Positions 26,018 to 64,000 of a DNA stretch of 64,000 nt are shown here, piece by piece. The notes beneath the pieces were generated by a model, which did no database searches, was not told where the DNA came from, and saw nothing but the letters and a program-made list of their open reading frames with translations. The stretch lies in NCBI GenBank assembly GCA_000002435.2, contig CM018793.1, one strand, 5' to 3'. This DNA comes from Giardia intestinalis (taxonomy: Eukaryota). Numbering within the stretch: position 1 is the first letter of the stretch; every line of letters begins with the position of its first letter. The position numbers and the translations under genes are program-made.

Positions 26018-27610
26018 ATGACTAATGGACCTAGCAGGGCCGCAATGTTGCTACTAGTTCTCTGCTTTTTGATGAGCGCCCTCGCCGCGCAACGCACTAA
26101 ACAACCCACATCCGACTGCGGAGTCGCAAACTGCGCCCAGTGCAACGCGGACGGCAGGACGTGTGATCAGTGCAGCGAGGGGTACAACCTCAACCAGGAG
26201 AAGACCCAGTGCACCAAGGCGTGCGCGGTCGCAAACTGCGCCCAGTGCAACGCGGACGGCAGGACGTGTGATCAGTGCAGCGAGGGGTACAACCTCAACC
26301 AGGAGAAGACCCAGTGCACCAAGGCGTGCGCGGTCGCAAACTGCGCCCAGTGCAACGCGGACGGCAGGACGTGTGATCAGTGCAGCGAGGGGTACAACCT
26401 CAACCAGGAGAAGACCCAGTGCACCAAGGCGTGCGCGGTCGCAAACTGCGCCCAGTGCAACGCGGACGGCAGGACGTGTGATCAGTGCAGCGAGGGGTAC
26501 AACCTCAACCAGGAGAAGACCCAGTGCACCAAGGCGTGCGCGGTCGCAAACTGCGCCCAGTGCAACGCGGACGGCAGGACGTGTGATCAGTGCAGCGAGG
26601 GGTACAACCTCAACCAGGAGAAGACCCAGTGCACCAAGAACCCAGAAGCGCGATGCAATACTCCCAACTGTAAGACCTGTGACAGCCCCAAAACAGACAG
26701 TGAAATCTGCACTGAATGTAATAATGGCAACTACCTCACCCCGACAAAGCAGTGCACGCAGAGCTGCGGAACAATAGGAAGCTACTACAACGGAGACAAA
26801 GTGTGCGAGCCCTGTGATCCTAGCTGTGCTGCGTGCATCACAAAGGGACCAGCGAAGTGCACGCTGTGTCCTCCCGGGAAGAGGCTCCAGTACACAGATG
26901 AAGGAGCCACTCAGAACGGCGGATCCTGCGTAGATGAGTGCAAGCCTGAAGGAGGAGCTAGCGGATGCGAGACCTGCGGAGCCACCATCGGAGGGACAAA
27001 GTATTGCTCGAAGTGCAGCACATCCACGGAGGTCCCCGTCAACGGGGTCTGTACAGCAGACAATGCCCGCGCAGCTGCGTGCAAGGTGAAAGATGGCAAG
27101 GGAGGGTGCACTACGTGTGAGAGTGGATACTTCCTCCAAGACGGCGGTTGCTACAAACTCGGTAGACAGCCCGGTGAGCAGATATGCACAGCAGCCAGTA
27201 GCGCTGGTAAGTGCGAGACGTGCGCCAATAGTCTTCAGCCCAATAATGGAGCATGCCCCTCGTGTCACTCGACCTGTAAGACATGTCGTGATGCTAATTC
27301 TGCAAATGCTTGTACAACGTGTGCAGCTGGGTACTATATGGTCGGATCAGCAGCTGGACCATGCACTTCGTGTGACAGCAACAGTGGAAGTGTCAAGGGA
27401 GTTGCTGGCTGCATGAGCTGCGCTCCTCCATCGTCTAGTACTGGCTCCGTCCTTTGCTACCTCATGAACGGTGACAGTGCCGGCGGAAGCACGAACAAGA
27501 GCGGCCTTAGCACAGGCGCCATCGCAGGCATTTCTGTCGCAGTCATCGTTGTCGTGGGGGGTCTTGTCGGCTTCCTCTGCTGGTGGTTCCTCTGCAGGGG
27601 CAAGGCGTAG
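26018..27610 (+). CDS. variant-specific surface protein (VSP) with five tandem 35 aa repeats
   Basis: There is a signal peptide, pervasive CxxC motifs, and a C-terminal TM 'GLSTGAIAGISVAVIVVVGGLVGFLCWWF' followed by the invariant 'CRGKA' and a stop. AGTAAAC lies 14 nt after the stop. An alternative start at the second ATG (26045) gives the typical 'MLLL' VSP N-terminus. Confidence 0.9.
   Translation: MTNGPSRAAMLLLVLCFLMSALAAQRTKQPTSDCGVANCAQCNADGRTCDQCSEGYNLNQEKTQCTKACAVANCAQCNADGRTCDQCSEGYNLNQEKTQCTKACAVANCAQCNADGRTCDQCSEGYNLNQEKTQCTKACAVANCAQCNADGRTCDQCSEGYNLNQEKTQCTKACAVANCAQCNADGRTCDQCSEGYNLNQEKTQCTKNPEARCNTPNCKTCDSPKTDSEICTECNNGNYLTPTKQCTQSCGTIGSYYNGDKVCEPCDPSCAACITKGPAKCTLCPPGKRLQYTDEGATQNGGSCVDECKPEGGASGCETCGATIGGTKYCSKCSTSTEVPVNGVCTADNARAAACKVKDGKGGCTTCESGYFLQDGGCYKLGRQPGEQICTAASSAGKCETCANSLQPNNGACPSCHSTCKTCRDANSANACTTCAAGYYMVGSAAGPCTSCDSNSGSVKGVAGCMSCAPPSSSTGSVLCYLMNGDSAGGSTNKSGLSTGAIAGISVAVIVVVGGLVGFLCWWFLCRGKA
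26116..26640 (+). repeat. 5 x 105 bp perfect tandem repeat inside VSP coding region
   Basis: The unit encodes 'CAVANCAQCNADGRTCDQCSEGYNLNQEKTQCTKA'. Copies 2-5 are nucleotide-identical in the visible sequence, for example 'gtgtgatcag' recurs every 105 nt. Confidence 0.9.
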
Positions 27611-27624
27611 ATGTGTACTTAGGT

Positions 27625-27631
27625 AGTAAAC
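27625..27631 (+). promoter_or_regulatory. Giardia polyadenylation signal AGTAAAC (VSP)
   Basis: 'aggtagtaaacgcg' lies directly 3' of the VSP stop codon TAG (27608-27610). Confidence 0.7.
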
Positions 27632-28664
27632 GCGTCATTGTGTGTGGCTTATATAAATGTGCTGCTGGGGCTATCTGAGCGTGGCCCAGAGGTCGTGCGG
27701 GTGAGCCCGCTCCTTCCTGGCCAGTCCAGGAACGATGGCTGGTTTTGGATGATATAATAGGGATCTCCCTTCACTTGTATACCAGGAGTCTTTTGCGTCC
27801 CTCAGTTGTTCCGCAGAGGTGTGCTCAGTTCGAGTGTGCGCGTCGCTCAGCCCAGGATTCAACTTACTTGTCCATCTGCATTGTCCACCATTGGTGCCAC
27901 TTCTTGGTCTACCGCTCTGATGCCGGAGGGTCCCAGTAGTTGATGACCCTGGACTGACGCCTCGACAGACCGAAGCATCAGCCCAAGTGTGCTGTGCAGT
28001 GCAGATGGACCAGCCCACACGTCACTGAGCCAGACGCACTGCACAGGGTGAGCGTCGACACGGTCTCGTACTGGATGACGGACCACCTGCAAGAGCGCAC
28101 TGCGATCCATGAGCAGAGGACCATACTTCTCCCCCGATACCAACGCATAGGAGCTGTCCGCCGGCATCCACGAACGCGTACTATGACTCCAAGATAGAGG
28201 CGCACGGGGAGCATACCCTCCGATCATACTCGGAACCGATGATCGCTTCATGGGGAGACAAAGAGGTGCCCCGAGGAACGGGATAGGCACCCGAGGTCGT
28301 GGCGTGCGATCTTCGTCACGGAGCACCAGGGCCACGTGGAGGCCAGGCTGCTGTGACCGACGGTAGCCCCGAGACAACAGGTGCTCACTAGATATCAGAC
28401 GATGGTTGACCCCGACGGGCCAGAGGATGGGAGGAATCTAGAGGCACCGCGAGGAGCGGCAGGTCCCGGGGGAGACAGGATATAGGAGTTCTCCCGCCGG
28501 GATCGAGGGCATCCGACTCTCGGATTTCTGATCTCAGCTATTGTATGAGCGAGAGGCTTGCCCAGGGCGGCAATGGCTCGCATGAAAAGACCACTCCGGT
28601 AGCAGGCGACAACCCCGCCTCATTAAAATTTACTCTTCCCTAACCTCGTCTCTCTAGATATCTG

Positions 28665-29219
28665 ATGGTAGGCCCATTTGACAGTCTTGCAGATGCATTA
28701 ATACGACAGATGAACCTCCAGTTGGAGGACATGCGGCACAATGGAGAATACTCTCTCCTTCTAAGGATCATTCGGGGCCAGACCTCATTAACAGACAGAG
28801 TTGCCAAGAACCAAGAAGCACTATCTGTTGCCCGGAAGAAAGCAGGGGCAATTTTGACTGTATCACGACCTAAGCCACAAACTGACCCTGGATTTATTCA
28901 GAGAACGCAAAAAGCCCTTGAAGAAACACAGGACGCTATCCAGGAGACTCAGCGAAATATAGAGCGTCTCGAAGCCCAGCTAAAAGATGTTACTGCCAAG
29001 ACTGCAAACAAGGATGAATTACGACGTGCTGCATTGACTCTAGCAGACAGAGAAAATGCGGGTAGGGAGGAGCTCGTTGAACTTTATCACAGCATATCGG
29101 GAGTACACTGGGATCAGCCCGACTTGGGATATGTGCTTAGCGAGGAGATTGCAAAACCCATCCGTTTCAGCTCCTGTGTCGATGCCACCAACCAGCTCTG
29201 GGAAATGATTAACATGTAG
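28665..29219 (+). CDS. small coiled-coil + C-terminal globular protein (hypothetical; Spc24/Spc25-like architecture is speculative)
   Basis: The ATG is at 28665. Residues 60-130 are heptad-rich ('TQKALEETQDAIQETQRNIERLEAQLKDV') and are followed by a compact C-terminal domain. The gene is convergent with the helicase gene. Confidence 0.5.
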   Translation: MVGPFDSLADALIRQMNLQLEDMRHNGEYSLLLRIIRGQTSLTDRVAKNQEALSVARKKAGAILTVSRPKPQTDPGFIQRTQKALEETQDAIQETQRNIERLEAQLKDVTAKTANKDELRRAALTLADRENAGREELVELYHSISGVHWDQPDLGYVLSEEIAKPIRFSSCVDATNQLWEMINM

Positions 29220-33771: not shown

Positions 33772-34051
33772 ATAGTAACTATTTGCAGATCCACACGCTC
33801 ACCCGTCCATAGCGGTTCGTTTCCGGATTGCTCGTTTCCAGTTGTAAATTAATTTAAAGTGAATTCTTCTCAAGTTTTTACGCGGTGTCGAGAATGATGA
33901 GACGTGTTCCTCTCTCCTACAGACTCCCTGGGGATGCTATGTACACCTTACTGATTTACTTTCCTTTTCTCAAGGGCCATTGTGTCGTGCCATTGTGTTT
34001 TTGCGGGGCTTAGTGGTTCCCAGTGCAGTCGCCCGGATCCGGCAGGACCTA

Positions 34052-50381: not shown

Positions 50382-51524
50382 TTAACAGCCATTAAGGACG
50401 CTCATGATTATTCCCCTCTCTGCTTCGTCAGGACACATTTCGTATGGCTGTGTCTGCTTCTTGACGTCTTGTGCTGGAGATACGCAGTAGAGCGTGCTAT
50501 AATACTGTGCATAGTCATGAACTGTCAGACCTCCTTCAACGCCATTCCGTTTTGCATATCCCAGAAGTGAGTTAGATAAGCACCTGATCTTGTTGAACCA
50601 CAGTGGCTTGTTCTTCTTAATCCAGTAGTGCAGTGTTTCGACCTCATTAAGCTCATTGATGAATCCTGTTTCGACTGCGAACTCCATCGCTCTCGTGCTA
50701 TCTTCATCTGGAAATGCTCTGCGCAAACTGTCCACTGCTTGCTTTCCAATCTTAATGGATGTCTCGGTGTTATTACTGTAGGCCATTACAATAGACTTCG
50801 GGGCTATCCTGAGGATTAGATCGCTGAATGTAGAGTTTTCTACAGGCACATAGTCTTGTAGTGCACCTATCTCGTCTATTACACTTTCCAATTTGAACTG
50901 GGCGGTGATACTGGATAGTTTTTCACGGACCCACTGTGGCTTTAAGGATACACCTATATCAATGTATTGTGATGCTATACTTAGCATTCGCAATAGATCT
51001 GCGTACCTATTTTGTTTAGATGGTTCTTGATCTATATGGAGAACATTCAATGGGACGCCTTCATCTCGTAAGCGTCGTGCAATGCGAGCGACTGCTTCTA
51101 TATGGCGATAGTCCGTCATGTTGTTGGGATCATCGTTGAGATATATCATCAAATCAGTTGTTATTCCTTTGCTCGCTAAGTACTGGATGTCATAAACATA
51201 ATCTTCCTCGTACGGGAGGACTCCCTTGCTATAGTAATCTTCATACTCCCACTCCACAGACCCTGCGAAGAGAATTACGTTATTAAAGCCATGGAGTGAG
51301 CAAAAGTCTGCTAACTTTTCTATTTCTCCCTGTCTGTTTTTGATCAGGAGGATCCAGGCAGGCGTGCCGTCAATACGGTTGGTTGTGGAGTGAGACCACA
51401 CATAGAGGGACTTCTTTTGTTCTTTATATGCAGTAAATTCCGGATATAGCGCGTCTACATCACTTGAAGAAGTGAATGCGTATGTTGTTACTGCAAGCTC
51501 AAGGATCAGTCCCAGTGTGAGCAT
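50382..51524 (-). CDS. secreted hypothetical protein, possibly a (beta/alpha)8 glycoside-hydrolase-like enzyme
   Basis: Signal peptide 'MLTLGLILELAVTTYAFTSS'. Hydrophobic beta-strand-like segments alternate with helices and end in acidic residues ('NVLHIDQEP', 'DLMIYLNDDP'). The fold assignment is inference only. Confidence 0.6.
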   Translation of the reverse strand: MLTLGLILELAVTTYAFTSSSDVDALYPEFTAYKEQKKSLYVWSHSTTNRIDGTPAWILLIKNRQGEIEKLADFCSLHGFNNVILFAGSVEWEYEDYYSKGVLPYEEDYVYDIQYLASKGITTDLMIYLNDDPNNMTDYRHIEAVARIARRLRDEGVPLNVLHIDQEPSKQNRYADLLRMLSIASQYIDIGVSLKPQWVREKLSSITAQFKLESVIDEIGALQDYVPVENSTFSDLILRIAPKSIVMAYSNNTETSIKIGKQAVDSLRRAFPDEDSTRAMEFAVETGFINELNEVETLHYWIKKNKPLWFNKIRCLSNSLLGYAKRNGVEGGLTVHDYAQYYSTLYCVSPAQDVKKQTQPYEMCPDEAERGIIMSVLNGC

Positions 51525-52458
51525 TTTATTTCCCGGGCCAGAGCATAGCTTATTAAGCCATCATTCGATTGGGTACACATATGAACAATGAGTTCCTAGT
51601 GTTCATATACTTTGGCTGAGACTTTCCTCTTCAGATACGATTACAAAAGTCTAAGATCACCTTTCTAACTATTATCTGAACAAGTTTCTTGGTAAGAAGC
51701 ATTGTTCAGATTCACACCCCAATACTTTATATCAATAATTTAGAAAGTTTCTGTAGACTGCTTGTATTATGCTGATATGTCTTTGAATAACTTGCCAACC
51801 ATATCTGCATTATCTACAAGTAAAAAGGAGAGTGCCGTATATTGCTGACTGGTGATGCATCGCACAGAAAGCATACCACAAGACAGTTTAGATAATAATT
51901 CACTCCACCTTAGTTATTTTCATCGTCGGCTCTTTGGGACTGACTAATGGCTGCCTCTGTCGTCTCTTGGTGTCCGTCCAGTTCGTGGCCTCAGAGATAC
52001 TTGAGATCTCCGGGTAGCTGGCGGTTCTTCCTTTCCAATCGCTTTGGAGACAGACTCTCGGAGCCTGTTAACTAGCCCCATCGGGTGCTCACTTTGCTGC
52101 CATGCCAAATCTCTCAAGATGTTTCTGGACATAGAATGGAGAAGTCATCTGCTCCATGTGTAATTGAGAGCATCCTATCCTTGTATCTTTGCTGCTTCCT
52201 CGTCGTAGTCAGTATGGCTATTGAATGATGCACACGTCAACTGCCTTTCACTTGCCGATAATCCAGATATCCAGCTGTTGAGTATGCGCCAGCTCCCCTA
52301 CAGCTAAGGATTGTGTGAGTGACCATGTCTGGCTTTTAGTCCTTTCTTTGTGCAGCCTTGGGGACCCTCCTCCATGGTCAAGGATTGAGCAGTCTATAAT
52401 GGCAGGATTGCGCTCGCCAGGGGCCCTTTTCCTGTCTCCTGGTGATCTAATAGTCTTT

Positions 52459-54588
52459 TTAACAGCAGCACTCCAACCTTTGTAGTACTTCGTTCGAGAG
52501 GAGGGAGACTATCTCGTGGCATCCCCATAGCTTGGCCATACAAAGAGCATCTCCTCCCGTACTGTCTCTCAGACTCTTCTCTCTCACGAGGAGCTTTACA
52601 CAGTCAATACTACCAATTTTCATAGCAAACATAAGAGCGGTCCATCCCGTTTTCTCCTTCATGCCAGCTTCCTTGTCTACGAGTAGCCTAACACAATCTA
52701 CGTGACGATTCTGCGCAGCCCACATGAGAGCGGTCATCCCGTCAGTCCTCTGCATACCACCCTCCAGCTCCACAAGTAATTTGACGCAGTCTGTGCGGCC
52801 GAGCTCTGCAGCGCACATGAGAGCGGTCCATCCATTGCCATCTTGCATGCGGCTTTCCTTTTTCATGAGTAGCTTAACACAGTCTGTATAACCACGACCT
52901 GCTGCAGCCATGAGAGCTGTAGTTCCGTTATTATCTTGCATACATATCTCCTTCCTTAGTAAACTCCTGGCGCAGTTCGAGTAGCCATTACCTACTGTGG
53001 CCATAAGAGCCGTTCCTCCATTGTTATCTCTCATACCTCCTTCCCTTTCCAGCAAAAGCTCGAGACAGTCTATGTGACCAGTTCTTGCAGCCCATATGAG
53101 GGCCGTCCACCCGCTATTATCTCTTATGCCCCCTTCCTTCTCCAGTAGCAGCCCCACAAGTTCTGTGTGACCGTGTATCGCTGCTCTCATCAGGGCGGTC
53201 CCTCCGCATATCTTCCATCTGTCCACATGTGTGCATCCCTTCATCTGCATGCCTCCCTGGAGCGGTATGAGGGTCTTCACTGCCTCCACGTCGTTTCTGT
53301 CAACGGCCCTCATGAGGTCGGTGGAGTCGTCCTCTTCGAGATGCTCCTCCTCTGTGTCCTCTATATTGTCTGTCTCGTCTGTCGTATCTATTGCATCTAC
53401 TGTGTCTGTCGTATCTGTCGTATCCGCTGTATCCGTTGCATTCCACGCGTCCCCCATGCCTATCTTCATCCATATCTCCTTTACCTTCTCAAGCGTCTTG
53501 GAGGTCTCACCAAACTGCTCCTTAGGGATATCTGCCCCTGCGGATTTAGCAGCAAGCTCCTTCTCAAGAGATAGGATCTTGTTGTTGGCATCATTCAGAG
53601 CAGCCTCCAAAGATGCGCATCTGTTCCTCAGTGCTTTATCTTTGGCTTCCTGTTCATCAGGAGGGCCGTTGAGCATCTGAAGCAGACGGACAAGCCCTCT
53701 GGCTGTCGGCCTCCTCTCTGGATCCAGCACGAATATCCGCTCCAGAACACTCTTTATGAAGCCGTCGGTGATGCCACTCAGATCGGGCCTCCACCCATCG
53801 ACGAAGACATCCTCTGGTTCTCTGCCCCCCAAGAAGTCCGGCTTCCTCAGGGTGGCGAGCTCGTATGCTATGGCCCCAATGCTCCAGATGTTGGACGCGG
53901 GAGTTATGATACCGCGGAGGAGCGTCTCGGGGGCCATGTATGCGGGGTCGCCGGTCTTCGTAGCCCAGCTCGACATGCCCATGCAGAGTTCGAAATTCGC
54001 AAGAACAATGTGCCTCCTATTTTCTGTGAATAAAATATTGTCAGGCTTGAAGATAACACCAGGAAACAGGCTGCCGTGGACACCATTGATGGGATCATGC
54101 AAGTAGATAAGGCAATTAGCAAGGTCTCTTACAAGGGAAAGTACCAACCTCTTAGGAATAGGCTTATGAGTTTCTCTGTAATTAGTGATCAACTGCTGAA
54201 GGTCTCCGCAGCGGCGGTCCATGATAATAAAAATCGTATTGCGACTCTTAATTATCTTGCCGCAGCTGAGAACATCCGGATAAGAGGTGTTTGGAAGAGC
54301 GACTAGCTTGAGTTTGGCAGCATCTACACTATACTGGTCTGGATCATCAGGCCGGATCTCCTTCGCGGCAAGGTGAGGGTATCCTTTAAGAGAGTAGATA
54401 GTACTGTAGGCATCCTTGCTGAGCACGTCACCCAGGCACCTGCGCAGCTTCTCGGGACTGAACATGGGGACGTCATCTGTATCCACCAGCCCCGCAAAAC
54501 CACTAGCTGACCCCTCAGTAGGACTCCTTAGAGTGCTATGTGCGGCGGATGAGGTAAGGGGGTAAGACCGGCAGTCAACAGCCATCAT
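52459..54588 (-). CDS. NEK-family ankyrin-repeat pseudokinase (degenerate kinase domain + coiled coil + TD-repeat + 8 or more ankyrin repeats)
   Basis: The N-terminal kinase-like domain has 'APE' ('DPAYMAPE') but the catalytic motifs are degenerate: 'VHGSLFPGVIFKPDNILF' replaces HRDLKPxN, 'LANFE' replaces DFG, and there is no GxGxxG loop. Next come the coiled coil 'LRNRCASLEAALNDANNKILSLEKELAAK' and the acidic repeat 'DTADTTDTTDTVDAIDTTDETD'. The C-terminus has ankyrin repeats of the form 'GWTALMxAAxxGHxDCVxLLVEKEGGMQ'. The start is moved to the ATG at 54588, whose upstream sense strand reads 'aaaattaaaagtaATGATG'. Confidence 0.8.
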   Translation of the reverse strand: MMAVDCRSYPLTSSAAHSTLRSPTEGSASGFAGLVDTDDVPMFSPEKLRRCLGDVLSKDAYSTIYSLKGYPHLAAKEIRPDDPDQYSVDAAKLKLVALPNTSYPDVLSCGKIIKSRNTIFIIMDRRCGDLQQLITNYRETHKPIPKRLVLSLVRDLANCLIYLHDPINGVHGSLFPGVIFKPDNILFTENRRHIVLANFELCMGMSSWATKTGDPAYMAPETLLRGIITPASNIWSIGAIAYELATLRKPDFLGGREPEDVFVDGWRPDLSGITDGFIKSVLERIFVLDPERRPTARGLVRLLQMLNGPPDEQEAKDKALRNRCASLEAALNDANNKILSLEKELAAKSAGADIPKEQFGETSKTLEKVKEIWMKIGMGDAWNATDTADTTDTTDTVDAIDTTDETDNIEDTEEEHLEEDDSTDLMRAVDRNDVEAVKTLIPLQGGMQMKGCTHVDRWKICGGTALMRAAIHGHTELVGLLLEKEGGIRDNSGWTALIWAARTGHIDCLELLLEREGGMRDNNGGTALMATVGNGYSNCARSLLRKEICMQDNNGTTALMAAAGRGYTDCVKLLMKKESRMQDGNGWTALMCAAELGRTDCVKLLVELEGGMQRTDGMTALMWAAQNRHVDCVRLLVDKEAGMKEKTGWTALMFAMKIGSIDCVKLLVREKSLRDSTGGDALCMAKLWGCHEIVSLLSNEVLQRLECCC

Positions 54589-55182
54589 TACTTTTAATTT
54601 TACAGTACAGTTTACTCTCCGTTTCACTGGGTAAATCTCCCATGCGAGCCAGCGCCGCCCTGGGCAGGTCTCTTGCTTACTCACTAACCGAAATCCAAAT
54701 CCAGACTTCGCAAGTCAAACGTCGTCCACTTCAGCGGGAGAAGAAGCCCAAATGGGGAAGTCGGTGGTCCAACGCCTAGCCCTCTGCGTCCCCAGTAGAC
54801 AACAAACCCGCGGCTGCTCCCACGAGTGAGCCGCTGAGGAAGGCCTGCGGGGACTCGAAGAAAAGAGTCTAGAGAGCATCCAATAGAATGAGCAGGAGGG
54901 CCAGGAGACAGGAACAAGAGAGCTCTAGCATCTTCCTCTAGCGAACCTCCCTGTCATGGAGAAGGGTGTATGGTGGCTGAGTGTGGGGGTTGTAAACCTA
55001 GAGCAATCGCCGGGTCGATGGCTTCAGCATGGCTTTCAGCAAGATGTAGCAGGGAATCCGAACCAGCTGAGCATTGGACCAGGTCCTGGATAGGAGCTAA
55101 GGGCTCCTGTGCACGGCTGGGCTGCTCTCTAGATGGGACAGGGCACGGTGAGCTGGACGGGTGTGATACTATAAGGTATCTA

Positions 55183-55202
55183 TAGTTGTATCGATACAAC
55201 TA
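55183..55202. repeat. 20 bp perfect palindrome tagttgtatcgatacaacta
   Basis: Seen directly in the sequence. The 18 bp core 'agttgtatcgatacaact' is centred on a ClaI-like 'atcgat' site. Confidence 0.8.
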
Positions 55203-58200
55203 GTAGGCCCACACTGGACTCTGAGAAGTACACTGCTAGACAGGCTGGAGAAGCCTGAGGGGCGATAGCACCATCTTGTTATCGCTATGCAGTGCTCTGT
55301 GGGCATGCATTCAAGACATCATCCCCTGGTAGCCGGGGAGGGGACAGAGTCAGGCGGTAGTGAGCATGCCCATCAGAATGCCTCTAGGTACTGACCAGCC
55401 ACTCCCTAGAAGCGCAGATGTCTCGGCTAGGTTGCATCACATCCAGAGCAAAAGAGGAAGCTGTACTGTCCTATTTGTTTCTCAGAACAATGTGCGAATA
55501 GAAGGCGGCCCAGCGACTGATACTCTGCACCGTCCTCTTCATCCACAGCCTGAGCAGCCAGATGCCAGGCTCAATATGAAGACGGAGGCTGCGAAGAGTA
55601 AACTCACCACGGGGCCGATTGTCTGACACCAAAAAATCCGAAAGGACGACAGTAGCTGCTGTCTCCTTGAAGAGTGCATCACACACAGTATCGACCTTGG
55701 TCTCCTAGACGAACACTCTAGAACATTCTACACTAGCCCTGACTTCTGAGGCATTAAACCCTATAACTAGCACAGAGTGAGGCAACAGCATGCAGACGGT
55801 GCGTTATCTTCATAGATGTGTACTACAGCTTCCGACTGCATATGGATGTACCGAGATGGGCAGTTTGACCGGCTTACATTGGCGACTTGTCCGTCACCGT
55901 GTTTGCTGCGATGAGAAGCTGCGTCTGCCCGGCAGACTGAGCATAGATTACAGCAGCTTCTCTGCTGATGCATGTATGGCCATGCGCCGCCCTAGTAGGT
56001 GGCGTAAATACCATAATGCCTAACCTGTCTGTTGTTAGCGGAAAATAGCAGTTAGTCGTGTTAGAGATGCCTCTAAGTAAGCCTCTAGTCTTTGTGCCTA
56101 CTCCTCTACCAATTATAGTGACGACCGTATATTCAGAAAGACTACGGAACTCTCCACCGTCTCTCAAGGAGACTAACGGCTCATGCATGGGCTAGCGACG
56201 GAGGCCCATGAACTACCTACTACGAGCCTAGCTTACTGAGCAGTCTGGATCACAGTGCACTTGATAAGCATCTATGCACTCATTTGGATGCTCACTACTA
56301 ATACTGACAAGACTACAAGGAGGTTTGCTTTTGGTCACACTCCCCTCATAATGCTTAGCCCTTGGCACCACATTTCAACGAAGGAAGATGTTAGGTAGGT
56401 ACGCAAAAGGCTATTTGTGCACGGTGGTTCCTGGAGAGCAAGTTTGCACAAAGACTGTAAAGGCGACTAGCAGATCAGTGAGGTAAGCCTGACGTTATAG
56501 AGACAAGCTGTAGATCCGGATTGCAATGGGGACGCCTGTGGTGTCTCTCTGGCCTTCGAGTGTAGAAAAATCGCGAGGTCTGCAGACAGGTGAAGCTAGT
56601 TTTTGATTTATGCGCTTATAGCAGTGTAATATTTATTGGGACCTGTTTCGTCTGAGGCCGAAGACGTTTATCTTTTCTCCGTATACAAGCAAGGATCTAC
56701 TGTAGAGATATACTGTGCAGGCCAGTACCAATCGACGTGGTTGCTATTAGCAGGTGTCTCACTTGCACCTTCTCATAACGGGTAGCCATCAGCAGCGTCC
56801 TCGGCCCACGTGACATTCTAGATGCATCTCTGCCTTTGACCAAAGATTGACACACGCGTTGTGTAGTTTAGATTGCTCATCAGCCAGAGTGGCGTGGCTA
56901 CCCCTTATCCTCTACTTGTCTATCTCGTACAACCATTGCTGATGGCCTTTCCAGATTAGCATGCAAATGCTCTTATCGGTCCCACAAAGGCATACGTCAT
57001 ACAAATAATCACTACAGTCTAGGGTCCTGTCTACCAAAGAAAAGGCCAACCAGTTTACCACGTAGGCATTCATTGTGCATCTCATATAGTCTGGCAAGTC
57101 TTGTGCTCCCCAACATTCCCTCGCAAGCCCTCAGCTAAAGCCCGTATGCATATCGTTATTGACAAGCGCCTTAGCTTCATCTGGCCACTTAGGGCGTTAG
57201 ACCCTTTGCCTTGTACAATGAGTATACTCGGCGTGGGAGGTATACAATCAGCATCGGCCTTTTCTGCTCGTTGTCCGTATGATACTGTTGTTGCTTCTTG
57301 ATTCAACCAGCAACCTAGTTAATGGCTCAAGAGTAGGTGATAGCCCGCCAACGGGCAGTCAATAGTGGCCATAACGCATACCTTCACCAAGGCACAGCCT
57401 CCCTGAGCAGAGCACAAAAGTGGACCCTGCCATTCTGCGGCCCTACTATTCTCTTGAATAACAGGATCAGAGCAGCTCATGGTTAGTATTAGCTGTCTTC
57501 GGGTCTCCACCTGTCCTTATTGTCTGAGGTATGCTTGACTCCGTAGATTCGAAAGATGCTGTACTGTACTCGTACCTGCAAGCCTCAGCCAAGCAAGGCT
57601 ACCATCTTGAAGGCTTGGCAGTGATGAGCCACACAGTCGGCGGGATCTGCAGAGAGCATTCATCCCAATGAGCCTTTTACTTGTCGTATACAGGTTGTGG
57701 CTGTGACCTCATAGGCGCAGGACTTTCTGGAATAACCGGTCAACTACAGAGTCTGTCCACTCATGTAAAGCCACCTGATAGAGGGCGATATCAATCTCGT
57801 CACTCGTCTACAACATACACCAGTCGAATCTCACAGATGAACAAGGGCCACCCAGCCCGCAGCACTAGACATTAACAGATATCCTTCACGACAAAGGGGG
57901 TGAGCGACTAGTAGACCACAGCAGTCGCCTGCCCATTGAAGATCTTCCAGTCACTGACCTAGGTCAGCTTCCTACAAGATCTTGAGAGCTTTATTAGAGG
58001 TGCATGCTTATAGAATCCCCAACTCAAGGTGCATGCTGTCGGACCCTGCTATTTTTCACATCAGCTCGTAGACATCGGTTCTTTTGATCTCTAGTGGGGT
58101 CACGGGGGATCGCAAGATATGGTTCCCTCAGTAAGGCTTTATCTGACTCCTGTAGCTATATGACAGGAGGATACCGGTCTTCTATGGATTATTTAACGCA

Positions 58201-59357
58201 TGCTAAGGTGCACCAGTACAAGTCCTACAGTGTGGCATGATTCGTGAGTCAAAAGGTAGGATGCTTGGGCTGATTGGCGTGTCTCCTCGGGACCAAATAC
58301 AGCTAGGACCAAAGGTCATGAACGAATGCTATTCGATTCCCTTATCAGCAGATGGGGGTCAACTGCTCTAGTATCCACAAGAGGCTATAGAGGGTACTGG
58401 ACCAGGCATCCGGCCAATTGCTGGCAAATCAACACAACCTCCTTGGATCTCCATTCTTTCCTCACAGGCATCTACATGTAGGAAGCTCTGAGGACCTAGA
58501 GCCCTACACTAACAGGCTCAAGGTATTGCACTCCTAGGTGCTTCCATTAGTGGTGGTAGTGATAGCACCAGGATGATCCAGAAGGGGGATAGAAATCCTG
58601 CCCCGTTAGCTCAAGAAATGGCACAGTTTGAGCAGGGTTTCCTCCTTGTTTAAATTTGGGAGTACTAGCCTACGCCCTCTGACCATCTGACGCCTTATCA
58701 TGCGATGGGGAATCTTAATAGTATCCACTACAAAAAGCCAGAAATAGCACCATGCACACCCAACAAACCAGAGCGTCTCATAGGCTAATCTACACTGATT
58801 CGCACTTCCACGGACCCTAGCGACCACTGTAACCGTCTCTCGGGATCTTGCAAGGGACTGTCCTTGAGCGCGATTCCTCCATGACAACCAGAAGTCGCAG
58901 ACATAGTCCAAAGGGATGAGAATACTATAGAGGCGGAGAAGAGATCATCTGCGCACGGGGGTCCGCAGGGGCCCGACCCGCACAGGGAAGGCGTAAGAGG
59001 CCAATTCCCCAGGAATGCAGAGACATTAAGAGAGGAACCAGCAGTGGGCCCATAACACAGGGAGGTCACCCGGGCCGCCCCCTGATTGGCCACAGGGTAG
59101 AGGAGCAGCATGCGCGCGGGACAGCATTGCTACTTATTTTTGAATTTTCTGTTTCCCTGCATGTTGTGCAGGGGTCCGCGGTGGGTGCTAGACTATAGTT
59201 AGTAGATGCTTTCGGCATTAACAACTATCTCTTGTACAACAATATTATCAAAAAGGGATTTCTTTAAGCTGGCAGCATAGCAATAACCGAATGGAGCTTT
59301 TTAGCTTTGGGTATCTTTGCTAGTAGGATTCTTGATAGTGGATTAAGAAGAATCTCA

Positions 59358-60617
59358 ATGTTGCTGATAGCTTTCTATCTTGGGCTGAGCGCCCTTGCGG
59401 CACAATGTAAGCAAGTACAAAATTGTGCAGCAGGTAAGTGTGAGATGGTTGGCGGCACTGAAATTTGTACAGAATGCGCGACAAATGGAAACGTTCCTAT
59501 CAATGGGGAGTGTACACCAAAAGGTAATGCGGCTGATAAATGCAAGAAAGTTAACGGTAATGAGCTTGTTGACGATAAGACATGTGGAAAATGTGAGAAC
59601 ACATACTTCATGTACAAGGGTGGATGCTATCAACTTGGCAGTGATGTCGCACTCCTCATCTGCAACGATCAAGCTGCTTCACCTGGAGGGCGTAATGCTG
59701 TTGCTGGCGTTTGCACAGAATGTAATGCTACTGGGGGATTCTTCAAAAGCCCAGAGGCGGCCGACACGACAGATTCCTGCATATCGTGCAGTGATACAAC
59801 TGGAGTGCAGGTTAATGGCGGTAACACGTATAAAGGTATCGAGAATTGTGTAGTATGTGCAGCTCCAGAAAGAGGAACAGGTAACGAAAATAAGATTGCT
59901 GCATGTGAGTCATGTCTTGAAGGATTCTTCGTTGCATCTAACAAGGCAGTATGCACACGTTGTACTGATAATGATAATTGCGCTAAGTGTGATGCAGGCG
60001 AAAACAAGTGCACAAAATGTAAGGCAACAGCCAGCAAACCATATCTAAAAAAGGGCGAAACCGAGGACTCTAATACATGTGTTAATAGTAACGAATGTAC
60101 TACTGATAAAACTTACTTCACTGATGATACTGACGACCCTACTCATGGAAAGATGTGCAAGAAATGCTCAGAAGGGATAGCAGACTGTAAGAAATGCGCT
60201 CCATCATCACCTTCTGCTTTAGCTACAGTATCCGCAATTGTGTGCACAGAATGTACAACACAGACCAACAAACCCAATGTTGCCGGAACAGGGTGCTTCA
60301 CATGCTCCGTAGACGGATGTAGTAACTGTAGCGAGAATGACGTATGTGAAAAGTGTGGACCTAACAAGAAGGTGAGCCCCGGGAGGAAGTCATGCGTGGA
60401 TAGCTGTCCCGAGAACTCCATTGACGATAACTCTGTCTGTACATGCAGCAGTGGGTACAGCCCTGACAGCAGTGGGGCCTCCTGTGTGTCCACTGGCAGT
60501 AATAGGAGCGGGCTCTCCACGGGGGCCATAGCGGGGATCTCCGTCGCAGTCATCGTCGTCGTCGGGGGTCTCATAGGGTTCCTCTGCTGGTGGTTCGTGT
60601 GTAGGGGGAAGGCGTGA
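59358..60617 (+). CDS. variant-specific surface protein (VSP), left copy of inverted pair
   Basis: Signal peptide 'MLLIAFYLGLSALAA'. There are many CxxC motifs. The C-terminal TM 'GLSTGAIAGISVAVIVVVGGLIGFLCWWF' is followed by 'CRGKA' and a stop. AGTAAAC lies 8 nt after the stop. The track start at 59307 is a TTG, so the first ATG at 59358 is used. Confidence 0.9.
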   Translation: MLLIAFYLGLSALAAQCKQVQNCAAGKCEMVGGTEICTECATNGNVPINGECTPKGNAADKCKKVNGNELVDDKTCGKCENTYFMYKGGCYQLGSDVALLICNDQAASPGGRNAVAGVCTECNATGGFFKSPEAADTTDSCISCSDTTGVQVNGGNTYKGIENCVVCAAPERGTGNENKIAACESCLEGFFVASNKAVCTRCTDNDNCAKCDAGENKCTKCKATASKPYLKKGETEDSNTCVNSNECTTDKTYFTDDTDDPTHGKMCKKCSEGIADCKKCAPSSPSALATVSAIVCTECTTQTNKPNVAGTGCFTCSVDGCSNCSENDVCEKCGPNKKVSPGRKSCVDSCPENSIDDNSVCTCSSGYSPDSSGASCVSTGSNRSGLSTGAIAGISVAVIVVVGGLIGFLCWWFVCRGKA

Positions 60618-61148
60618 CTTAGGTAGTAAACACGTCACTGTATATGGCTTATTACGCTATTCTGCCGGGGCTATCTGAGGATCGCCCAGAGGTCGTGCGA
60701 GTGATCCTCGCTCAAGCTCTGACCAGTCTAAGGACGAGGGTTGGTCATGAATAACATGACGGAGAGCCCTCTCCAGTGACACATCCAGAATCTGGGCATT
60801 CCTCGCCGCTCCATGAGGATATGCTCTGTCTGGATGTCCATGCCGATCTATCTTGGATTCAGGCCTTCTCGCAGGCTCTCTACTCTACCCGTGGCGCCTC
60901 TCCATGGTCTTCCTTCGTGGTGGGTGAAGCTCCGGTCGCTGTTTTTTAGATGCTCCTGTCTGTCAGGGGCTGCCACCGGGCTCTCCGCTGGCTGGGCCCT
61001 CGGTGTCCGTCCGGCTGTGGCCCGGGCAGCGCTCTACGGTCGCGGTCACTTGGGTCTCAGTGGGTTCGGATGGTGGGGAGGCGAGGGGAGTTAGGGCGGT
61101 GAGGCCGGAGGGGCTGGAGGGGCTGGAGGGGCTGAGGTTGGTGGTGGT
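59872..61148. repeat. left arm of large perfect inverted repeat (VSP 3' two-thirds + 530 bp 3' flank); probably extends further left
   Basis: Coordinates x and 123872-x are reverse complements. ORF pairs 60813-61094(+)/62778-63059(-) and 60390-60638(-)/63234-63482(+) translate identically. The arms diverge at about 61148/62724. Confidence 0.85.
60625..60631 (+). promoter_or_regulatory. Giardia polyadenylation signal AGTAAAC (VSP left copy)
   Basis: 'cttaggtagtaaacacg' lies immediately 3' of the TGA stop (60615-60617). Confidence 0.7.
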
Positions 61149-63240
61149 TGTATGCGCCTCTGGTCCCTCGATAGACTGGGGTGATCGCAGCTGTGGTGAC
61201 TGGGGGCTGTCCATCTGTGACTCACCCCTCTGTGTGCTCGTGGTCTGTGAGTGCCTCCACCCAGACAACCCTCAGGAGCCGTGCACACCAGGACAGAGAG
61301 GGTGACAGAGGAGAGTCAAGCAGCCCTGCCACGAGGGTGCACAGCAGCCAGCCTGGGCTGCAGGGCCCGCTCGAGCGATGGTAGTGACAGACGACTCCCT
61401 CTGACAGCAGCCCTGGTGACTGGCACTGGTCTGCTTTCGAGGCTGAGTGACAGTGTGCACAGATGGACATGAGTGCAGGAGGACCATCCACACACGGACA
61501 GACTGTGCCCCCATACGAGAGCGCCAGGCAACCACCCGAGCACCCGAGAGGCAGCAACAGACACGGGCACTAGAGATCCCCAGCCAGACAGCTGCCATGC
61601 TCATCCATAGGGGCATCAGAGGACCAGGGGAGTCACCCTCACAATCAGGGTATGATAGGAAGCCAGAGGACTCAAACACTACAGCATAGCAGATCCAAGG
61701 GAGGCACACTCCAGCAGGCGAGCAGTGGCAGAGCCCTGATAGCTGCCAGCCCCCCATGACACCCAGGCAGGCACCAGGCTCACCGAAGGCTCTGCTGGCC
61801 TCCACCGATGATCCGAGGGGGCAGCAACCAGAGGAGTGGGGAGGCCTTCGGACACCACAAGAGGCCCGGCTGTCCAGCAGGCGATGGAGCACAGGTGGCC
61901 TCTGAGCACCATACAGGCACAGAGCCGACCATCAGAGTGATGCCCGATCAGAGACGACCACGAGCACCCTCCACCGCACTCTGAGGGGCTGTCGATCATC
62001 CCACTGCCTCTCATAGCAGACCTCCTTGAGAGCAGTGCAGTGGGTCCCAGCTCATGCACGCCTCCCCTGGCATAGGACACCCCGGCTCTCCCCGAGGGGT
62101 CATCAGAGCCACGAGAGGTGTCAAGGTCCTGGTAGATCACACCGGGAACTCCCCGAGGGCACAGCAACTGAGATATGAGTGACCCTCAGTGTGCTCCTCT
62201 CTGATGGTAGAGCATCTTGAGACCAAGGGGGTCACCTCTGCCTACGGACGACACACAGCACTCCACAACAAGGACCCACTAGGAGCAGCACAGCTGACCA
62301 CGGGGACAGTGCAGTCACCAGTGCCCCACCGTGCCAGTTTTCTGGGCCATCATACTATAGGCATGAGAGAACCCCATCCCATCCACAGGGTCATCCATGC
62401 CCCTGCTGGCCCGAGGTGAACTCCCCGTCGAGGCGCTGGACAGGGCATGCCAGGGGCTCAGCAGACCCACAGAGAGAATCAGCGAGTAGCAGGAGGGGCT
62501 GCGATGGCCTGCCTCAGCCCTCACGTACCAGCCAGACAGAGAGACAGTACTGCCTGAGGCATGCAGGGGCCAAGGGAGGCGATCAGTCAGGGGACACGAC
62601 ACGATCGTCGGTGCCTGTGTCTCGGGAGTGCAACGAAGGCTGGAGATCAGACACAGCCACCTTAGCAAACAGAGTGGGGACAACCCACCACCCCAATAGC
62701 CCACCGAACCCAGAGGCACATACAACACCACCAACCTCAGCCCCTCCAGCCCCTCCAGCCCCTCCGGCCTCACCGCCCTAACTCCCCTCGCCTCCCCACC
62801 ATCCGAACCCACTGAGACCCAAGTGACCGCGACCGTAGAGCGCTGCCCGGGCCACAGCCGGACGGACACCGAGGGCCCAGCCAGCGGAGAGCCCGGTGGC
62901 AGCCCCTGACAGACAGGAGCATCTAAAAAACAGCGACCGGAGCTTCACCCACCACGAAGGAAGACCATGGAGAGGCGCCACGGGTAGAGTAGAGAGCCTG
63001 CGAGAAGGCCTGAATCCAAGATAGATCGGCATGGACATCCAGACAGAGCATATCCTCATGGAGCGGCGAGGAATGCCCAGATTCTGGATGTGTCACTGGA
63101 GAGGGCTCTCCGTCATGTTATTCATGACCAACCCTCGTCCTTAGACTGGTCAGAGCTTGAGCGAGGATCACTCGCACGACCTCTGGGCGATCCTCAGATA
63201 GCCCCGGCAGAATAGCGTAATAAGCCATATACAGTGACGT

Positions 63241-63247
63241 GTTTACT
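63241..63247 (-). promoter_or_regulatory. Giardia polyadenylation signal AGTAAAC (VSP right copy)
   Basis: 'gtttact' on the plus strand equals AGTAAAC on the minus strand, directly 3' of the minus-strand VSP stop. Confidence 0.7.
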
Positions 63248-63254
63248 ACCTAAG

Positions 63255-64000
63255 TCACGCCTTCCCCCTACACACGAACCACCAGCAGAGGAACCCTATG
63301 AGACCCCCGACGACGACGATGACTGCGACGGAGATCCCCGCTATGGCCCCCGTGGAGAGCCCGCTCCTATTACTGCCAGTGGACACACAGGAGGCCCCAC
63401 TGCTGTCAGGGCTGTACCCACTGCTGCATGTACAGACAGAGTTATCGTCAATGGAGTTCTCGGGACAGCTATCCACGCATGACTTCCTCCCGGGGCTCAC
63501 CTTCTTGTTAGGTCCACACTTTTCACATACGTCATTCTCGCTACAGTTACTACATCCGTCTACGGAGCATGTGAAGCACCCTGTTCCGGCAACATTGGGT
63601 TTGTTGGTCTGTGTTGTACATTCTGTGCACACAATTGCGGATACTGTAGCTAAAGCAGAAGGTGATGATGGAGCGCATTTCTTACAGTCTGCTATCCCTT
63701 CTGAGCATTTCTTGCACATCTTTCCATGAGTAGGGTCGTCAGTATCATCAGTGAAGTAAGTTTTATCAGTAGTACATTCGTTACTATTAACACATGTATT
63801 AGAGTCCTCGGTTTCGCCCTTTTTTAGATATGGTTTGCTGGCTGTTGCCTTACATTTTGTGCACTTGTTTTCGCCTGCATCACACTTAGCGCAATTATCA
63901 TTATCAGTACAACGTGTGCATACTGCCTTGTTAGATGCAACGAAGAATCCTTCAAGACATGACTCACATGCAGCAATCTTATTTTCGTTACCTGTTCCTC
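63255..64000 (-). CDS. variant-specific surface protein (VSP), right inverted copy, 5' part beyond window end
   Basis: The minus-strand ORF encodes the identical C-terminal 154 aa '...GLSTGAIAGISVAVIVVVGGLIGFLCWWFVCRGKA'. The reverse complement of the last 40 nt of the window exactly matches 59872-59911 of the left copy. Confidence 0.85.
   Translation of the reverse strand, partial: GTGNENKIAACESCLEGFFVASNKAVCTRCTDNDNCAKCDAGENKCTKCKATASKPYLKKGETEDSNTCVNSNECTTDKTYFTDDTDDPTHGKMCKKCSEGIADCKKCAPSSPSALATVSAIVCTECTTQTNKPNVAGTGCFTCSVDGCSNCSENDVCEKCGPNKKVSPGRKSCVDSCPENSIDDNSVCTCSSGYSPDSSGASCVSTGSNRSGLSTGAIAGISVAVIVVVGGLIGFLCWWFVCRGKA

Follow-up and report, generated by a model that had tools for sequence, protein, structure and literature searches.

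The window analysed here is a stretch of 64,000 nucleotides from chromosome 5 of Giardia intestinalis WB. It is mostly coding, as the first-pass annotation stated, with a coding density of 78% over the whole window and 88% to the left of a large intergenic gap, which is referred to below as the desert. That annotation described an ORF-free interval at 54685-59306. The gap itself stands, but the ends given for it are those of the longest ORFs, and the flanking genes start at 54588 and 59355. The features of the locus are as follows.

52459-54588, minus strand: left flank gene, a NEK kinase with ankyrin repeats (Pfam Pkinase and Ank domains)
54589-59354, no strand: the intergenic desert, from the NEK ATG to the VSP ATG, 4766 bp, 50.0% GC
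54596-54738, minus strand: element X, ~140 nt, conserved, directly upstream of the NEK ATG
54603-54973, minus strand: segment conserved in assemblage E (P15 L021:9308-9668, ~63% identity, E 7.5e-16)
55183-55202, no strand: palindrome TAGTTGTATCGATACAACTA, perfect over 20 bp; no other palindrome in the window exceeds 14 bp
55874-56188, minus strand: GL50803_117618, a 104-codon ORF found by exact look-up, without an entry in the current NCBI protein set
57845-59354, no strand: VSP-proximal desert; contigs end at 57845, and paired VSPs share 5' flanks (PMC2996952)
59066-59218, minus strand: GL50803_115734, a 50-codon ORF found by exact look-up, in the 2007 annotation only
59200-59358, plus strand: A/T-rich VSP promoter region, 35% GC, terminating in a CAATGTT initiator that contains the start codon
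59355-60617, plus strand: VSP GL50803_d14331 (XP_001705960.1), 420 codons, C-terminal CRGKA, Pfam VSP 2e-26
59872-61163, no strand: the part of inverted-repeat arm 1 inside the window; 99.85% identical (self-blastn) to its partner, 62710-64000

The left flank kinase is most likely GL50803_30354 (XP_001705969.1), the accession number of which sits between those of GL50803_117618 and 16622. Its ATG, at 54588 on the minus strand, carries the A/T-rich initiator AAAATTAAAAGTAATG, and the gene is transcribed (logCPM ~6.5, supplement table). The coding sequence of GL50803_d14331 starts at the same position as in the supplement of 10.1101/2022.03.07.483299, and the desert places the NEK gene and this VSP head-to-head. 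The A/T-rich stretch that had been noticed 5' of the VSP ATG is confirmed by a measured 35% GC in 59200-59357; initiators are defined as PyAatgTT in PMC2996952. The second VSP, GL50803_14331, extends past the end of the window. The two genes form a tail-to-tail pair in which 2637 bp separate the ORFs, in agreement with Table 2 of PMC7000408 and S4 of 10.1101/2022.03.07.483299, and the loop between the inverted-repeat arms (61164-62709) is ~61% GC. The pair is probably vsp107 of Adam et al. 2010 (PMC2996952). The identity of the locus is now fixed as NEK GL50803_30354 beside the VSP pair d14331/14331 on chromosome 5.

No long ORF is found in 54685-59306, as had been claimed. The longest ORFs that start from ATG, GTG or TTG measure 108, 104 and 101 aa, and the longest stop-to-stop run in the desert is 114 codons. 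Within the left 3.2 kb the longest ATG-started ORF is GL50803_117618. In Markov simulations of first and second order the mean longest ORF is 128 and 135 codons (sd 25), and 35% and 21% of runs give a longest ORF that does not exceed the observed one. The ORF lengths match the simulations, and the desert therefore resembles random, unconstrained sequence and not sequence enriched in stops. Stops are indeed frequent, at ~48 per kb on the plus strand, but ~47 are expected, so that no special enrichment is left of the earlier remark. The mean hexamer coding score lies below zero in each of the six frames (-0.16 to -0.23), against +0.14 for NEK and +0.22 for VSP held-out controls. The six-frame translation of the desert matches no Pfam family at E<=1, a weak negative, as the inter-VSP spacer, called 'VSP like region' in a paper, also gave nothing. 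No signal of a supported protein-coding gene was detected in the desert.

Collinear protein-level similarity to an intact neighbouring or syntenic gene, as expected of a pseudogene, was not detected. The Pfam VSP, Pkinase and Ank families are without a match in the desert. A 350-aa gene at the syntenic site of assemblage E isolate P15 gives a best tblastn E of 0.26, with scattered matches. Matches in tblastx against the P15 and GS_B flanks are confined to VSP and ankyrin parts outside the desert.

A cluster of non-coding RNAs had been put forward for this region. Rfam returns no match in 54000-60000 at E<=1, no tRNA is found in the desert by a tRNA scan, and there is neither a 3' motif nor a structural signal; RNA folding z-scores across the desert are unremarkable. 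The sole Rfam match over the whole window is GlsR10 (33891-33958). The 12-nt 3' processing motif of Giardia ncRNAs (HCMTTYHHTHAA, [T/A/C]C[C/A]TT[T/C][A/T/C][C/T/A]T[C/T/A]AA; PMC3510501) has three matches in the window and none within the desert. A copy at 33962-33973, 4 nt past GlsR10, served as a positive control.

The base composition of the desert is balanced (A.258, C.251, G.251, T.240) and CTAG is common, both as first noticed. There are 36 copies, 7.55 per kb, against 2.97 in coding DNA and 0.8-4.2 in the other gaps. CTAG is at 1.94 times the expectation from base frequencies and at 1.08 times the expectation given the CTA and TAG trinucleotide frequencies, and no flanking consensus was found around the 36 copies. 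The CTAG excess follows from di- and trinucleotide composition. The desert has two to three times more CTAG than the other window gaps and no TA depletion, and its A/T runs are at about half the expected density (W6 7.4 per kb, 54589-57844). This composition, unlike that of the other gaps, could reflect a distinct origin or constraint. The reported palindrome at 55183-55202 is perfect over its 20 bp. About 0.06 perfect palindromes of this length are expected per 64 kb, and the folding energy of the hairpin is unremarkable; it is probably due to chance.

The desert is four times the size of the next-largest gap in the window (1205 bp), which also lies beside a VSP. The other gaps had been described as short, and most are, at 18-440 bp, but this does not hold for the largest. 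The window's other VSP (26018-27610) is flanked by gaps of 1.2 and 1.05 kb. Gene-poor surroundings of VSPs have been reported (Xu, Jex & Svärd 2020, PMC7000408), and 'an extended noncoding region upstream' is typical of vsp genes (Adam et al. 2010, PMC2996952). Intergenic regions at VSPs measure 1280 nt in the median and 2131 nt on average, compared with 79 and 392 genome-wide (Rodriguez-Walker et al. 2022, 10.1101/2022.03.07.483299), and hypothetical genes adjoining VSPs are without transcription in the same work. On these published genome-wide figures, the refuting case named in the first-pass annotation, that of comparable gaps being common beside VSPs, largely applies. Its length of 4.77 kb is nevertheless more than twice the published VSP-flank mean and falls in the upper tail, which counts against reading it as an ordinary flank. 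The 2 kb before the VSP have 49.5% GC, and the final 200 bp have 41%; the published mean for the 2 kb upstream of VSPs is 53.9%, against 45.2% for genes.

The suggestion that the region is assemblage-specific is upheld by comparison with other genomes. Of the desert, the syntenic site of P15 has no more than the first ~385 bp; the match of 54603-54973 was found by blastn and nhmmer, and the segment abuts a synteny block that terminates at window position 51779 (L021 9684). In GS_B (assemblage B) gene 16622 is neighboured by the 3' end of a VSP and an ankyrin fragment, and the desert is absent. Other genes occupy the corresponding position in G. muris. On these alignments the desert is shown to be lineage-specific and located at a synteny break. 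Element X has a second copy on the plus strand of the window (28494-28629) and three copies in P15. Its nhmmer E-values of 1e-32 to 1e-37 belong to the training copies only, and the alignment was also used. A convincing RNA structure was not found for element X. It recurs 5' of genes and in VSP flanks in assemblages A and E, and is a modest lead.

The desert has no internal, tandem, or terminal inverted or direct repeats and no A-rich tail, and no tandem or dispersed repeats were found within the window. All 13 short-read contigs that span 53839-57845 end at exactly 57845. This contig break is probably a repeat boundary. Paired VSPs have common 5' upstream sequence (PMC2996952; 10.1101/2022.03.07.483299), and 57845-59354 is probably repeated DNA that forms the outer end of the VSP-bearing inverted-duplication arm, the second arm of which would lie beyond the window.

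One segment of the desert, 55874-56188, was covered by a check for shared upstream sequence. In phmmer the relatives of GL50803_117618 are DHA2_153490 (86%), GL50803_107308 (56%) and GL50803_105640 (54%). The XP numbers of GL50803_107308 and GL50803_105640 adjoin those of VSPs 103992 and 115830, each of which is part of a tail-to-tail pair, and the spacer class of VSP 103992 (*5) is that of the d14331/14331 pair. The paralogs are diverged and low-copy, and their accession numbering suggests that they sit beside, and upstream of, these tail-to-tail pairs, which are on chromosomes 3 and 4. The flank appears to be one of a low-copy family that has spread along with VSP pairs. Three paralogs have the 104-codon frame open, most family members share its stop, and the one indel is in frame, all of which is mildly unexpected if the DNA is drifting.

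We consider it likely that the desert is a long non-coding upstream flank of the duplicated tail-to-tail VSP pair d14331/14331. Among the options first listed, the VSP-locus spacer and assemblage-specific DNA are supported, with the desert absent from the E and B syntenic sites bar the ~385 bp. Only the two ends look functional. At the NEK end ~150-400 bp would hold the A/T-rich initiator and the ~140 nt element X, and at the VSP end ~150 bp would form the A/T-rich promoter region closing in the CAATGTT initiator. The middle ~4.2 kb is most likely unconstrained DNA, which probably came by segmental duplication and rearrangement of a VSP cassette and its flank at the synteny breakpoint and would have drifted after its arrival. 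At least one segment appears to come from the low-copy diverged family upstream of other tail-to-tail VSP pairs, and the inverted duplication itself probably takes in the final ~1.5 kb. That the spacer is neutral, how the duplication came about and where the arm ends (57845) are inferred.

It is unlikely that the desert is instead an eroded mobile element, of the GilM/GilT/GilD non-LTR type or another transposon, once located next to the VSP, through which VSP pairs may have spread. Four head-to-head VSP pairs hold reverse-transcriptase remnants between their members (PMC7000408 Table 2), and CENSOR matches to transposable elements flank VSP pairs, tail-to-tail ones included, in a preprint (10.1101/2022.03.07.483299). 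The composition unlike that of the window's other non-coding DNA is consistent with such an element, as are the diverged low-copy paralogs of part of the desert beside VSP pairs on chromosomes 3 and 4. The paralogs, however, appear to be specifically upstream of VSP pairs, which co-duplication of the flank fits equally well. The specific proposal of a GilD-like dead retrotransposon found no backing: at E<=1, and within the limited sensitivity of Pfam, no reverse transcriptase, endonuclease, integrase or transposase domain is matched in six frames. The lack of terminal repeats, tandem structure and A-rich tail also argues against a mobile element, as do the fully random ORF statistics. The occurrence of 53839-57845 on a single contig in 13 isolates indicates that it is not a young multi-copy repeat.

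Less probable still is a functional spacer, either a boundary or nucleation region between the constitutive NEK gene and the epigenetically silenced VSP pair or a source of long or small non-coding RNA for VSP silencing. The position between a transcribed NEK gene and a VSP would suit this, VSP upstream regions are suspected in the control of mutually exclusive expression, and other VSP pairs also have members of the flank family. The low density of A/T runs, about half that expected from base composition, points the same way; such runs are said, from the work of Teodorovic et al. in 2007, to work as promiscuous promoters in Giardia. Against a functional spacer, neither assemblage E nor assemblage B keeps the sequence at its syntenic site, and no motif, repeat or structure resembles a binding array. 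Many VSPs have shorter flanks (published median 1.3 kb; linear-array members are ~60 bp apart), and 50-100 bp of upstream sequence is enough to drive Giardia genes on plasmids (10.1101/2022.03.07.483299).

We give similarly little credence to a conserved multi-kb module that travels with tail-to-tail VSP pairs and is retained for doing something for the pair. If so, the 14331 pair (chromosome 5), the 103992 pair (chromosome 4) and the 115830 pair (chromosome 3) would each have a copy upstream. Such a module might template or seed the inverted duplication, might serve mutually exclusive VSP expression as a buffer poor in promoters or a platform for silencing, or might encode a small 117618-family product.

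Very improbable is the last of the alternatives, a real small-protein gene or genes (the 117618/107308/105640/DHA2_153490 family) hidden in the desert and wrongly removed at re-annotation, which dropped small ORFs without RNA-seq or homolog support. In WB the 104-codon frame is open, as it is in the WB paralog of 56% identity, 97 codons are open in isolate DH, the stop position is common to three of the four members (the 56% paralog extends three codons more), and the single indel between that paralog and 117618 is of 4 codons and in frame; but the third paralog is cut to 46 codons, only copies with a called ORF could be found (an ascertainment bias), and the family accounts for 0.3 kb out of 4.8 kb. 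The 117618 frame is without a Pfam match, its hexamer score peaks at only 0.12, the AlphaFold model of its product averages a pLDDT of 35 and nowhere exceeds 50, and 117618 is missing from the current NCBI protein set.

Gene-poor extended VSP flanks are already published, and the desert, read as the upstream flank of the d14331/14331 pair, is one long example. New here are its absence from the E and B syntenic site, the 117618 paralogs by VSP pairs and the shared break at 57845. An over-interpretation is averted, as a hidden gene, an ncRNA cluster and a recognisable retroelement are all absent by the signals tested. The flank segment with diverged copies beside other tail-to-tail pairs is a modest lead for the expansion of the VSP repertoire. 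Should the flank family prove to be constrained, it would offer a way to study how inverted VSP pairs, so far unexplained, arise and are regulated.

The desert can be compared with four known systems. Giardia sno/snRNA genes (Hudson et al. 2012, PMC3510501) likewise occupy intergenic DNA; unlike them, the desert is without the motif, an Rfam match, or an A/T-rich start paired with the motif. The reverse-transcriptase remnants (pseudo-RT, GilD-like) between head-to-head VSPs are, like the desert, non-coding, stop-riddled and upstream of paired VSPs. In contrast to those pairs, no similarity to reverse transcriptase or endonuclease was detected, the VSPs here are arranged tail-to-tail, and the desert is to one side of them and not between them.

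The gene-poor VSP regions (PMC7000408; 10.1101/2022.03.07.483299) share with the desert a position adjacent to VSPs, no supported gene, and a length far above that of ordinary intergenic DNA. The small hypothetical ORFs of the old annotation, later dropped, are also shared, as is a location at a breakpoint of synteny where VSP and NEK genes abound. The desert differs in being longer than the median and mean, and the 2 kb before the VSP have a GC content below the VSP average, though above that of genes.

The inverted pairs of PMC2996952 have 5' divergence points, given for head-to-head pairs only, at 158-729 nt from the start codon, whereas the putative boundary here (57845) is ~1510 nt upstream, leaving most of the desert outside the duplicated arm. 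The identical 3' flanks are ~546 nt here and 529 in the table of that paper. As in those inverted pairs, the initiator is CAATGTT and short-read contigs terminate at the pair. Pair 107 is likewise tail-to-tail, with 2638 bp between the ORFs in Table 5 compared with 2637 bp here.

The window comes from Giardia intestinalis WB, assemblage AI. The gap, called the desert here, lies between a NEK kinase gene and a VSP gene, and these features define the locus:

50382-51524, minus strand: ORF in one 90%-identity protein cluster with GL50803_16622; the contig count of 41 agrees with the exact-sequence look-up of the ORF
52459-54588, minus strand: ORF with a protein-kinase domain followed by ankyrin repeats (Pfam), most likely the NEK kinase GL50803_30354 (XP_001705969.1), by accession number
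54589-59354: the desert, an intergenic span of 4766 bp from ATG to ATG
59355-60617, plus strand: ORF with a Pfam VSP match and CRGKA at its C-terminal end; the first bases of the listed CDS of GL50803_d14331 (XP_001705960.1, chromosome 5) are identical to it

The desert is most likely non-coding flank of a VSP cassette, which would have been carried along in duplication and rearrangement of the cassette and would then have drifted. The remaining gaps in the window measure 18-1205 bp, and the two largest adjoin its other VSP (26018-27610).

VSP d14331 is one half of an inverted pair (59872-61163 against 64000-62710, 99.85% identity) with a loop of 1546 bp and ~61% GC. The distance between the d14331 and 14331 ORFs, 2637 bp, is exactly the value tabulated for the '-> <-' pair d14331/14331 (PMC7000408 Table 2; S4 table of 10.1101/2022.03.07.483299). 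The pair probably corresponds to number 107 in Adam et al. 2010, where 2638 bp is listed. The 3' part of d14331 (60506-60745) matches 27499-27743 at 77% identity over the last ~110 bp of coding sequence and ~130 bp downstream. The two VSP loci compared are unrelated, and the match corresponds to the conserved 3' end and polyadenylation region of VSPs. The inter-VSP stretch (60618-63254, 2.6 kb, ~61% GC) is nearly without A/T runs (no W8) and low in TA and CTAG. In composition it is like a 5.3 kb gene-free stretch downstream of a VSP in P15, of assemblage E (contig L021 2864-8167, 58% GC), and unlike the desert; non-coding DNA at the VSP locus is thus of two distinct kinds.

The interior of the desert is specific to assemblage A at the syntenic site. 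Synteny between P15 and WB extends from the phosphorylase gene up to window position 51779 and not beyond, and the sole further match is P15 9308-9668 with window 54973-54603 (~63% identity, nhmmer E 7.5e-16), so that P15 shares no more of the desert than its first ~385 bp. Since synteny stops at 51779 and the match resumes at 54603, the WB NEK gene and its 3' flank (54602-51780, 2.8 kb) are an indel relative to P15. The indel is clean (51780-54602 against L021 9668-9684), comprises the whole NEK gene and 680 bp of 3' flank, and separates the conserved upstream block from the promoter region of 16622. All that assemblage B retains here is an 80-codon ankyrin fragment (GS_B contig L024 1016-1255). 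At the syntenic site in P15 lie a 350-aa gene, the 5.3 kb gene-free stretch and a VSP, none similar to the WB desert. In GS_B the ankyrin fragment and the 3' end of a VSP are found there, no more than 1.2 kb from gene 16622, and G. muris has unrelated genes. The first-pass annotation had offered assemblage-specific DNA and a spacer among its readings, and both descriptions hold. A decayed ortholog of the P15 350-aa gene as desert content was rejected by sequence comparison.

The P15 VSP beside gene 16622 and part of its downstream gap are 62-65% homologous to the window's other VSP locus (26018-28630), with window 27951-28628 aligned to L021 4561-5392 and 26654-27642 to L021 1910-2879; this VSP is not homologous to the d14331 pair. 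These alignments suggest that VSP cassettes and their flanks may have been relocated between assemblages. The desert lies at a break in synteny, as has been reported before for regions rich in VSP and NEK genes (PMC7000408).

In each of 13 short-read assemblies of assemblage A one contig covers 53839-57845 at 99.9-100% identity, which argues that the desert interior is not a young multi-copy repeat. All 13 contigs stop at exactly 57845, which is probably the edge of a repeat or duplication. The simplest reading would place the start of the inverted-duplication arm with the VSP at this point, ~1.5 kb upstream of the ATG. A JGI metagenome scan with the 30-mer at 57861-57890 gave no Giardia contigs. 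Exact-protein look-ups with the VSP (read from an ATG or a TTG start), the NEK and the 108-aa ORF of the desert likewise returned no contig. The desert contains one SNP, and because the isolates are nearly clonal SNP density has no power as a test of constraint. A further break, reached by contigs from either side, falls within the NEK kinase domain and leaves ~76 bp uncovered (53763-53839), and two isolates have four clustered mismatches at 53869-53880; both are probably due to k-mers common to NEK paralogs.

The lack of ORFs is real. Within 54685-59306, the stretch first described as free of ORFs longer than about 100 codons, the longest are 108, 104 and 101 aa, and the longest stop-free stretch of the desert is 114 codons. 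Simulated sequences had a mean longest ORF of 128 codons (Markov-1) or 135 codons (Markov-2), and in 35% and 21% of simulations, respectively, the longest ORF was no longer than that observed. Stop codons do occur in every frame, as had been remarked, at the level expected by chance and not above it. With a hexamer score trained on the window's own genes, NEK and VSP held out, all six frames of the desert average -0.16 to -0.23, against +0.22 for the held-out NEK and +0.14 for the VSP.

That the desert is an eroded mobile element, one of the origins first proposed, is unlikely. Six-frame translations of the desert match no Pfam family at E<=1 (models for reverse transcriptase, endonuclease, integrase, transposase, kinase, ankyrin and VSP were covered), and the retroelement proposal was not borne out. 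This negative carries limited weight because the same search of the inter-VSP spacer, labelled a 'VSP like region' (10.1101/2022.03.07.483299), was likewise negative and so uninformative as a sensitivity control. The desert has no notable tandem, direct or inverted repeats, and its similarity to the rest of the window is confined to its first ~150 bp.

This similarity falls at a conserved element of ~140 nt directly upstream of the NEK ATG, here called element X:

54596-54738, minus strand: WB copy 1, upstream of the NEK ATG
28494-28629, plus strand: WB copy 2, upstream of a 184-aa coiled-coil ORF (28665-29219)
L021 4560-4704 (minus), 6466-6611 (plus) and 9534-9672 (plus): three P15 copies in the VSP flank

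The core of the element is ...GAGCGAGAGG..CC.GCCCAGGGYGGCG.TGGCTCGCATGAG...CAGCAGGTGACAACCCCACCTCGGTGAAA, and in WB the element ends 8-35 nt before the ATG of the NEK gene and of the coiled-coil ORF. It has no Rfam match and a weak consensus structure; a structured RNA was rejected (RNAalifold -14 kcal/mol, covariation term unfavourable). Element X may be a common promoter or 5' element; a small dispersed repeat is the other possibility.

A/T tracts serve as promoters in Giardia. The A/T-rich stretch noted before the VSP ATG is present (59200-59357, 35% GC), and the ATG itself sits inside the published initiator CAATGTT. The desert interior is unusually poor in A/T tracts. Runs of at least six occur at 7.4 per kb in 54589-57844 against ~15.6 expected from base composition; coding DNA has 14 per kb and the ordinary gaps have 13-24. 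Function is probably limited to the two ends of the desert, which would comprise the NEK promoter with element X on one side and the A/T-rich VSP promoter with its initiator on the other. A functional boundary or silencing spacer is a doubtful reading of the desert, less probable than the mobile element.

Base composition is balanced and CTAG is common, as originally described; the 36 sites give a density of 7.55 per kb, compared with 2.97 in coding DNA. High AG/CT and a lack of TA depletion account for the CTAG excess, which is gone once trinucleotide frequencies are allowed for (observed/expected 1.08). CTAG as a piece of a longer motif was rejected, the flanks of the 36 sites having neither consensus nor information. 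An origin of the TAG excess in telomere-like TAGGG repeats was rejected too (2 copies on one strand and 6 on the other, 4.7 expected on each). No palindrome in the window is longer than the perfect 20 bp one at 55183-55202, of a kind expected ~0.06 times in 64 kb; its stability is not unusual.

A cluster of non-coding RNAs, also suggested at first, finds no support in the desert: there was no Rfam match at E<=1, no tRNA, no match to the Giardia ncRNA 3' processing motif (PMC3510501) and no robust structure in a folding scan. The positive control for the motif scan was snoRNA GlsR10 (33891-33958, plus strand, Rfam 105 bits), with the canonical motif TCCTTTTCTCAA 4 nt after it at 33962-33973. 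A candidate structured RNA at 55909-56028 was rejected when its z-score went from -4 (30 shuffles) to -1.85 (200 shuffles, 151 nt).

Two gene models of 2007 lie in the desert, and an exhaustive phmmer search with the 104-aa product of the first found three relatives:

55874-56188, minus strand: GL50803_117618
59066-59218, minus strand: GL50803_115734
DHA2_153490 (isolate DH): 86% identity to GL50803_117618
GL50803_107308 (WB): 56% identity to GL50803_117618
GL50803_105640 (WB): 54% identity over 46 aa to GL50803_117618

The current NCBI protein set contains neither model, in keeping with a published statement that over-annotated small ORFs were cleaned up. GL50803_117618 is unlikely to be a gene, given an AlphaFold pLDDT of 35, no Pfam match and the truncation of one paralog, and a missed small gene is a very unlikely account of the desert, the least probable of the alternatives. 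As a minor oddity, the frame persists and three of the four sequences have a common stop position. A JGI metagenome scan with the family alignment gave no Giardia contigs.

The family relates the desert to other VSP pairs. The accessions of the WB paralogs, XP_001709822 and XP_001709826, bracket VSPs 103992 (XP_001709823, chromosome 4) and 115830 (XP_001709824, chromosome 3), each in a tail-to-tail pair, and 103992 has spacer class *5, as in the d14331/14331 pair. Judging by accession numbering, the paralogs would lie upstream of other VSP pairs, and at least the desert segment 3.2-3.5 kb upstream of the VSP would thus be a member of a diverged flank family that goes with tail-to-tail VSP pairs.

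As a class the desert is already known. VSP surroundings tend to be gene-poor (Xu et al. 2020, PMC7000408), and 'an extended noncoding region upstream' is typical of vsp genes (Adam et al. 2010, PMC2996952). An S/MAR paper (PMC3017767) was set aside as having no bearing on the d14331 locus. Median and mean intergenic lengths are 79 and 392 nt over all regions, and 1280 and 2131 nt for VSPs (Rodriguez-Walker et al. 2022, 10.1101/2022.03.07.483299); hypothetical genes adjoining VSPs lack transcription in the same study, so true VSP gaps may be longer. By these figures the desert exemplifies a known pattern and falls in the upper part of the size range. Flank sharing between paired VSPs is also known (PMC2996952; 10.1101/2022.03.07.483299): upstream sequence is common to paired VSPs, and the 7 kb upstream of VSP1267 is similar to the upstream regions of other pairs (10.1101/2022.03.07.483299). 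The published 5' divergence points of identical VSP pairs fall at 158-729 nt, whereas 57845 lies farther out.
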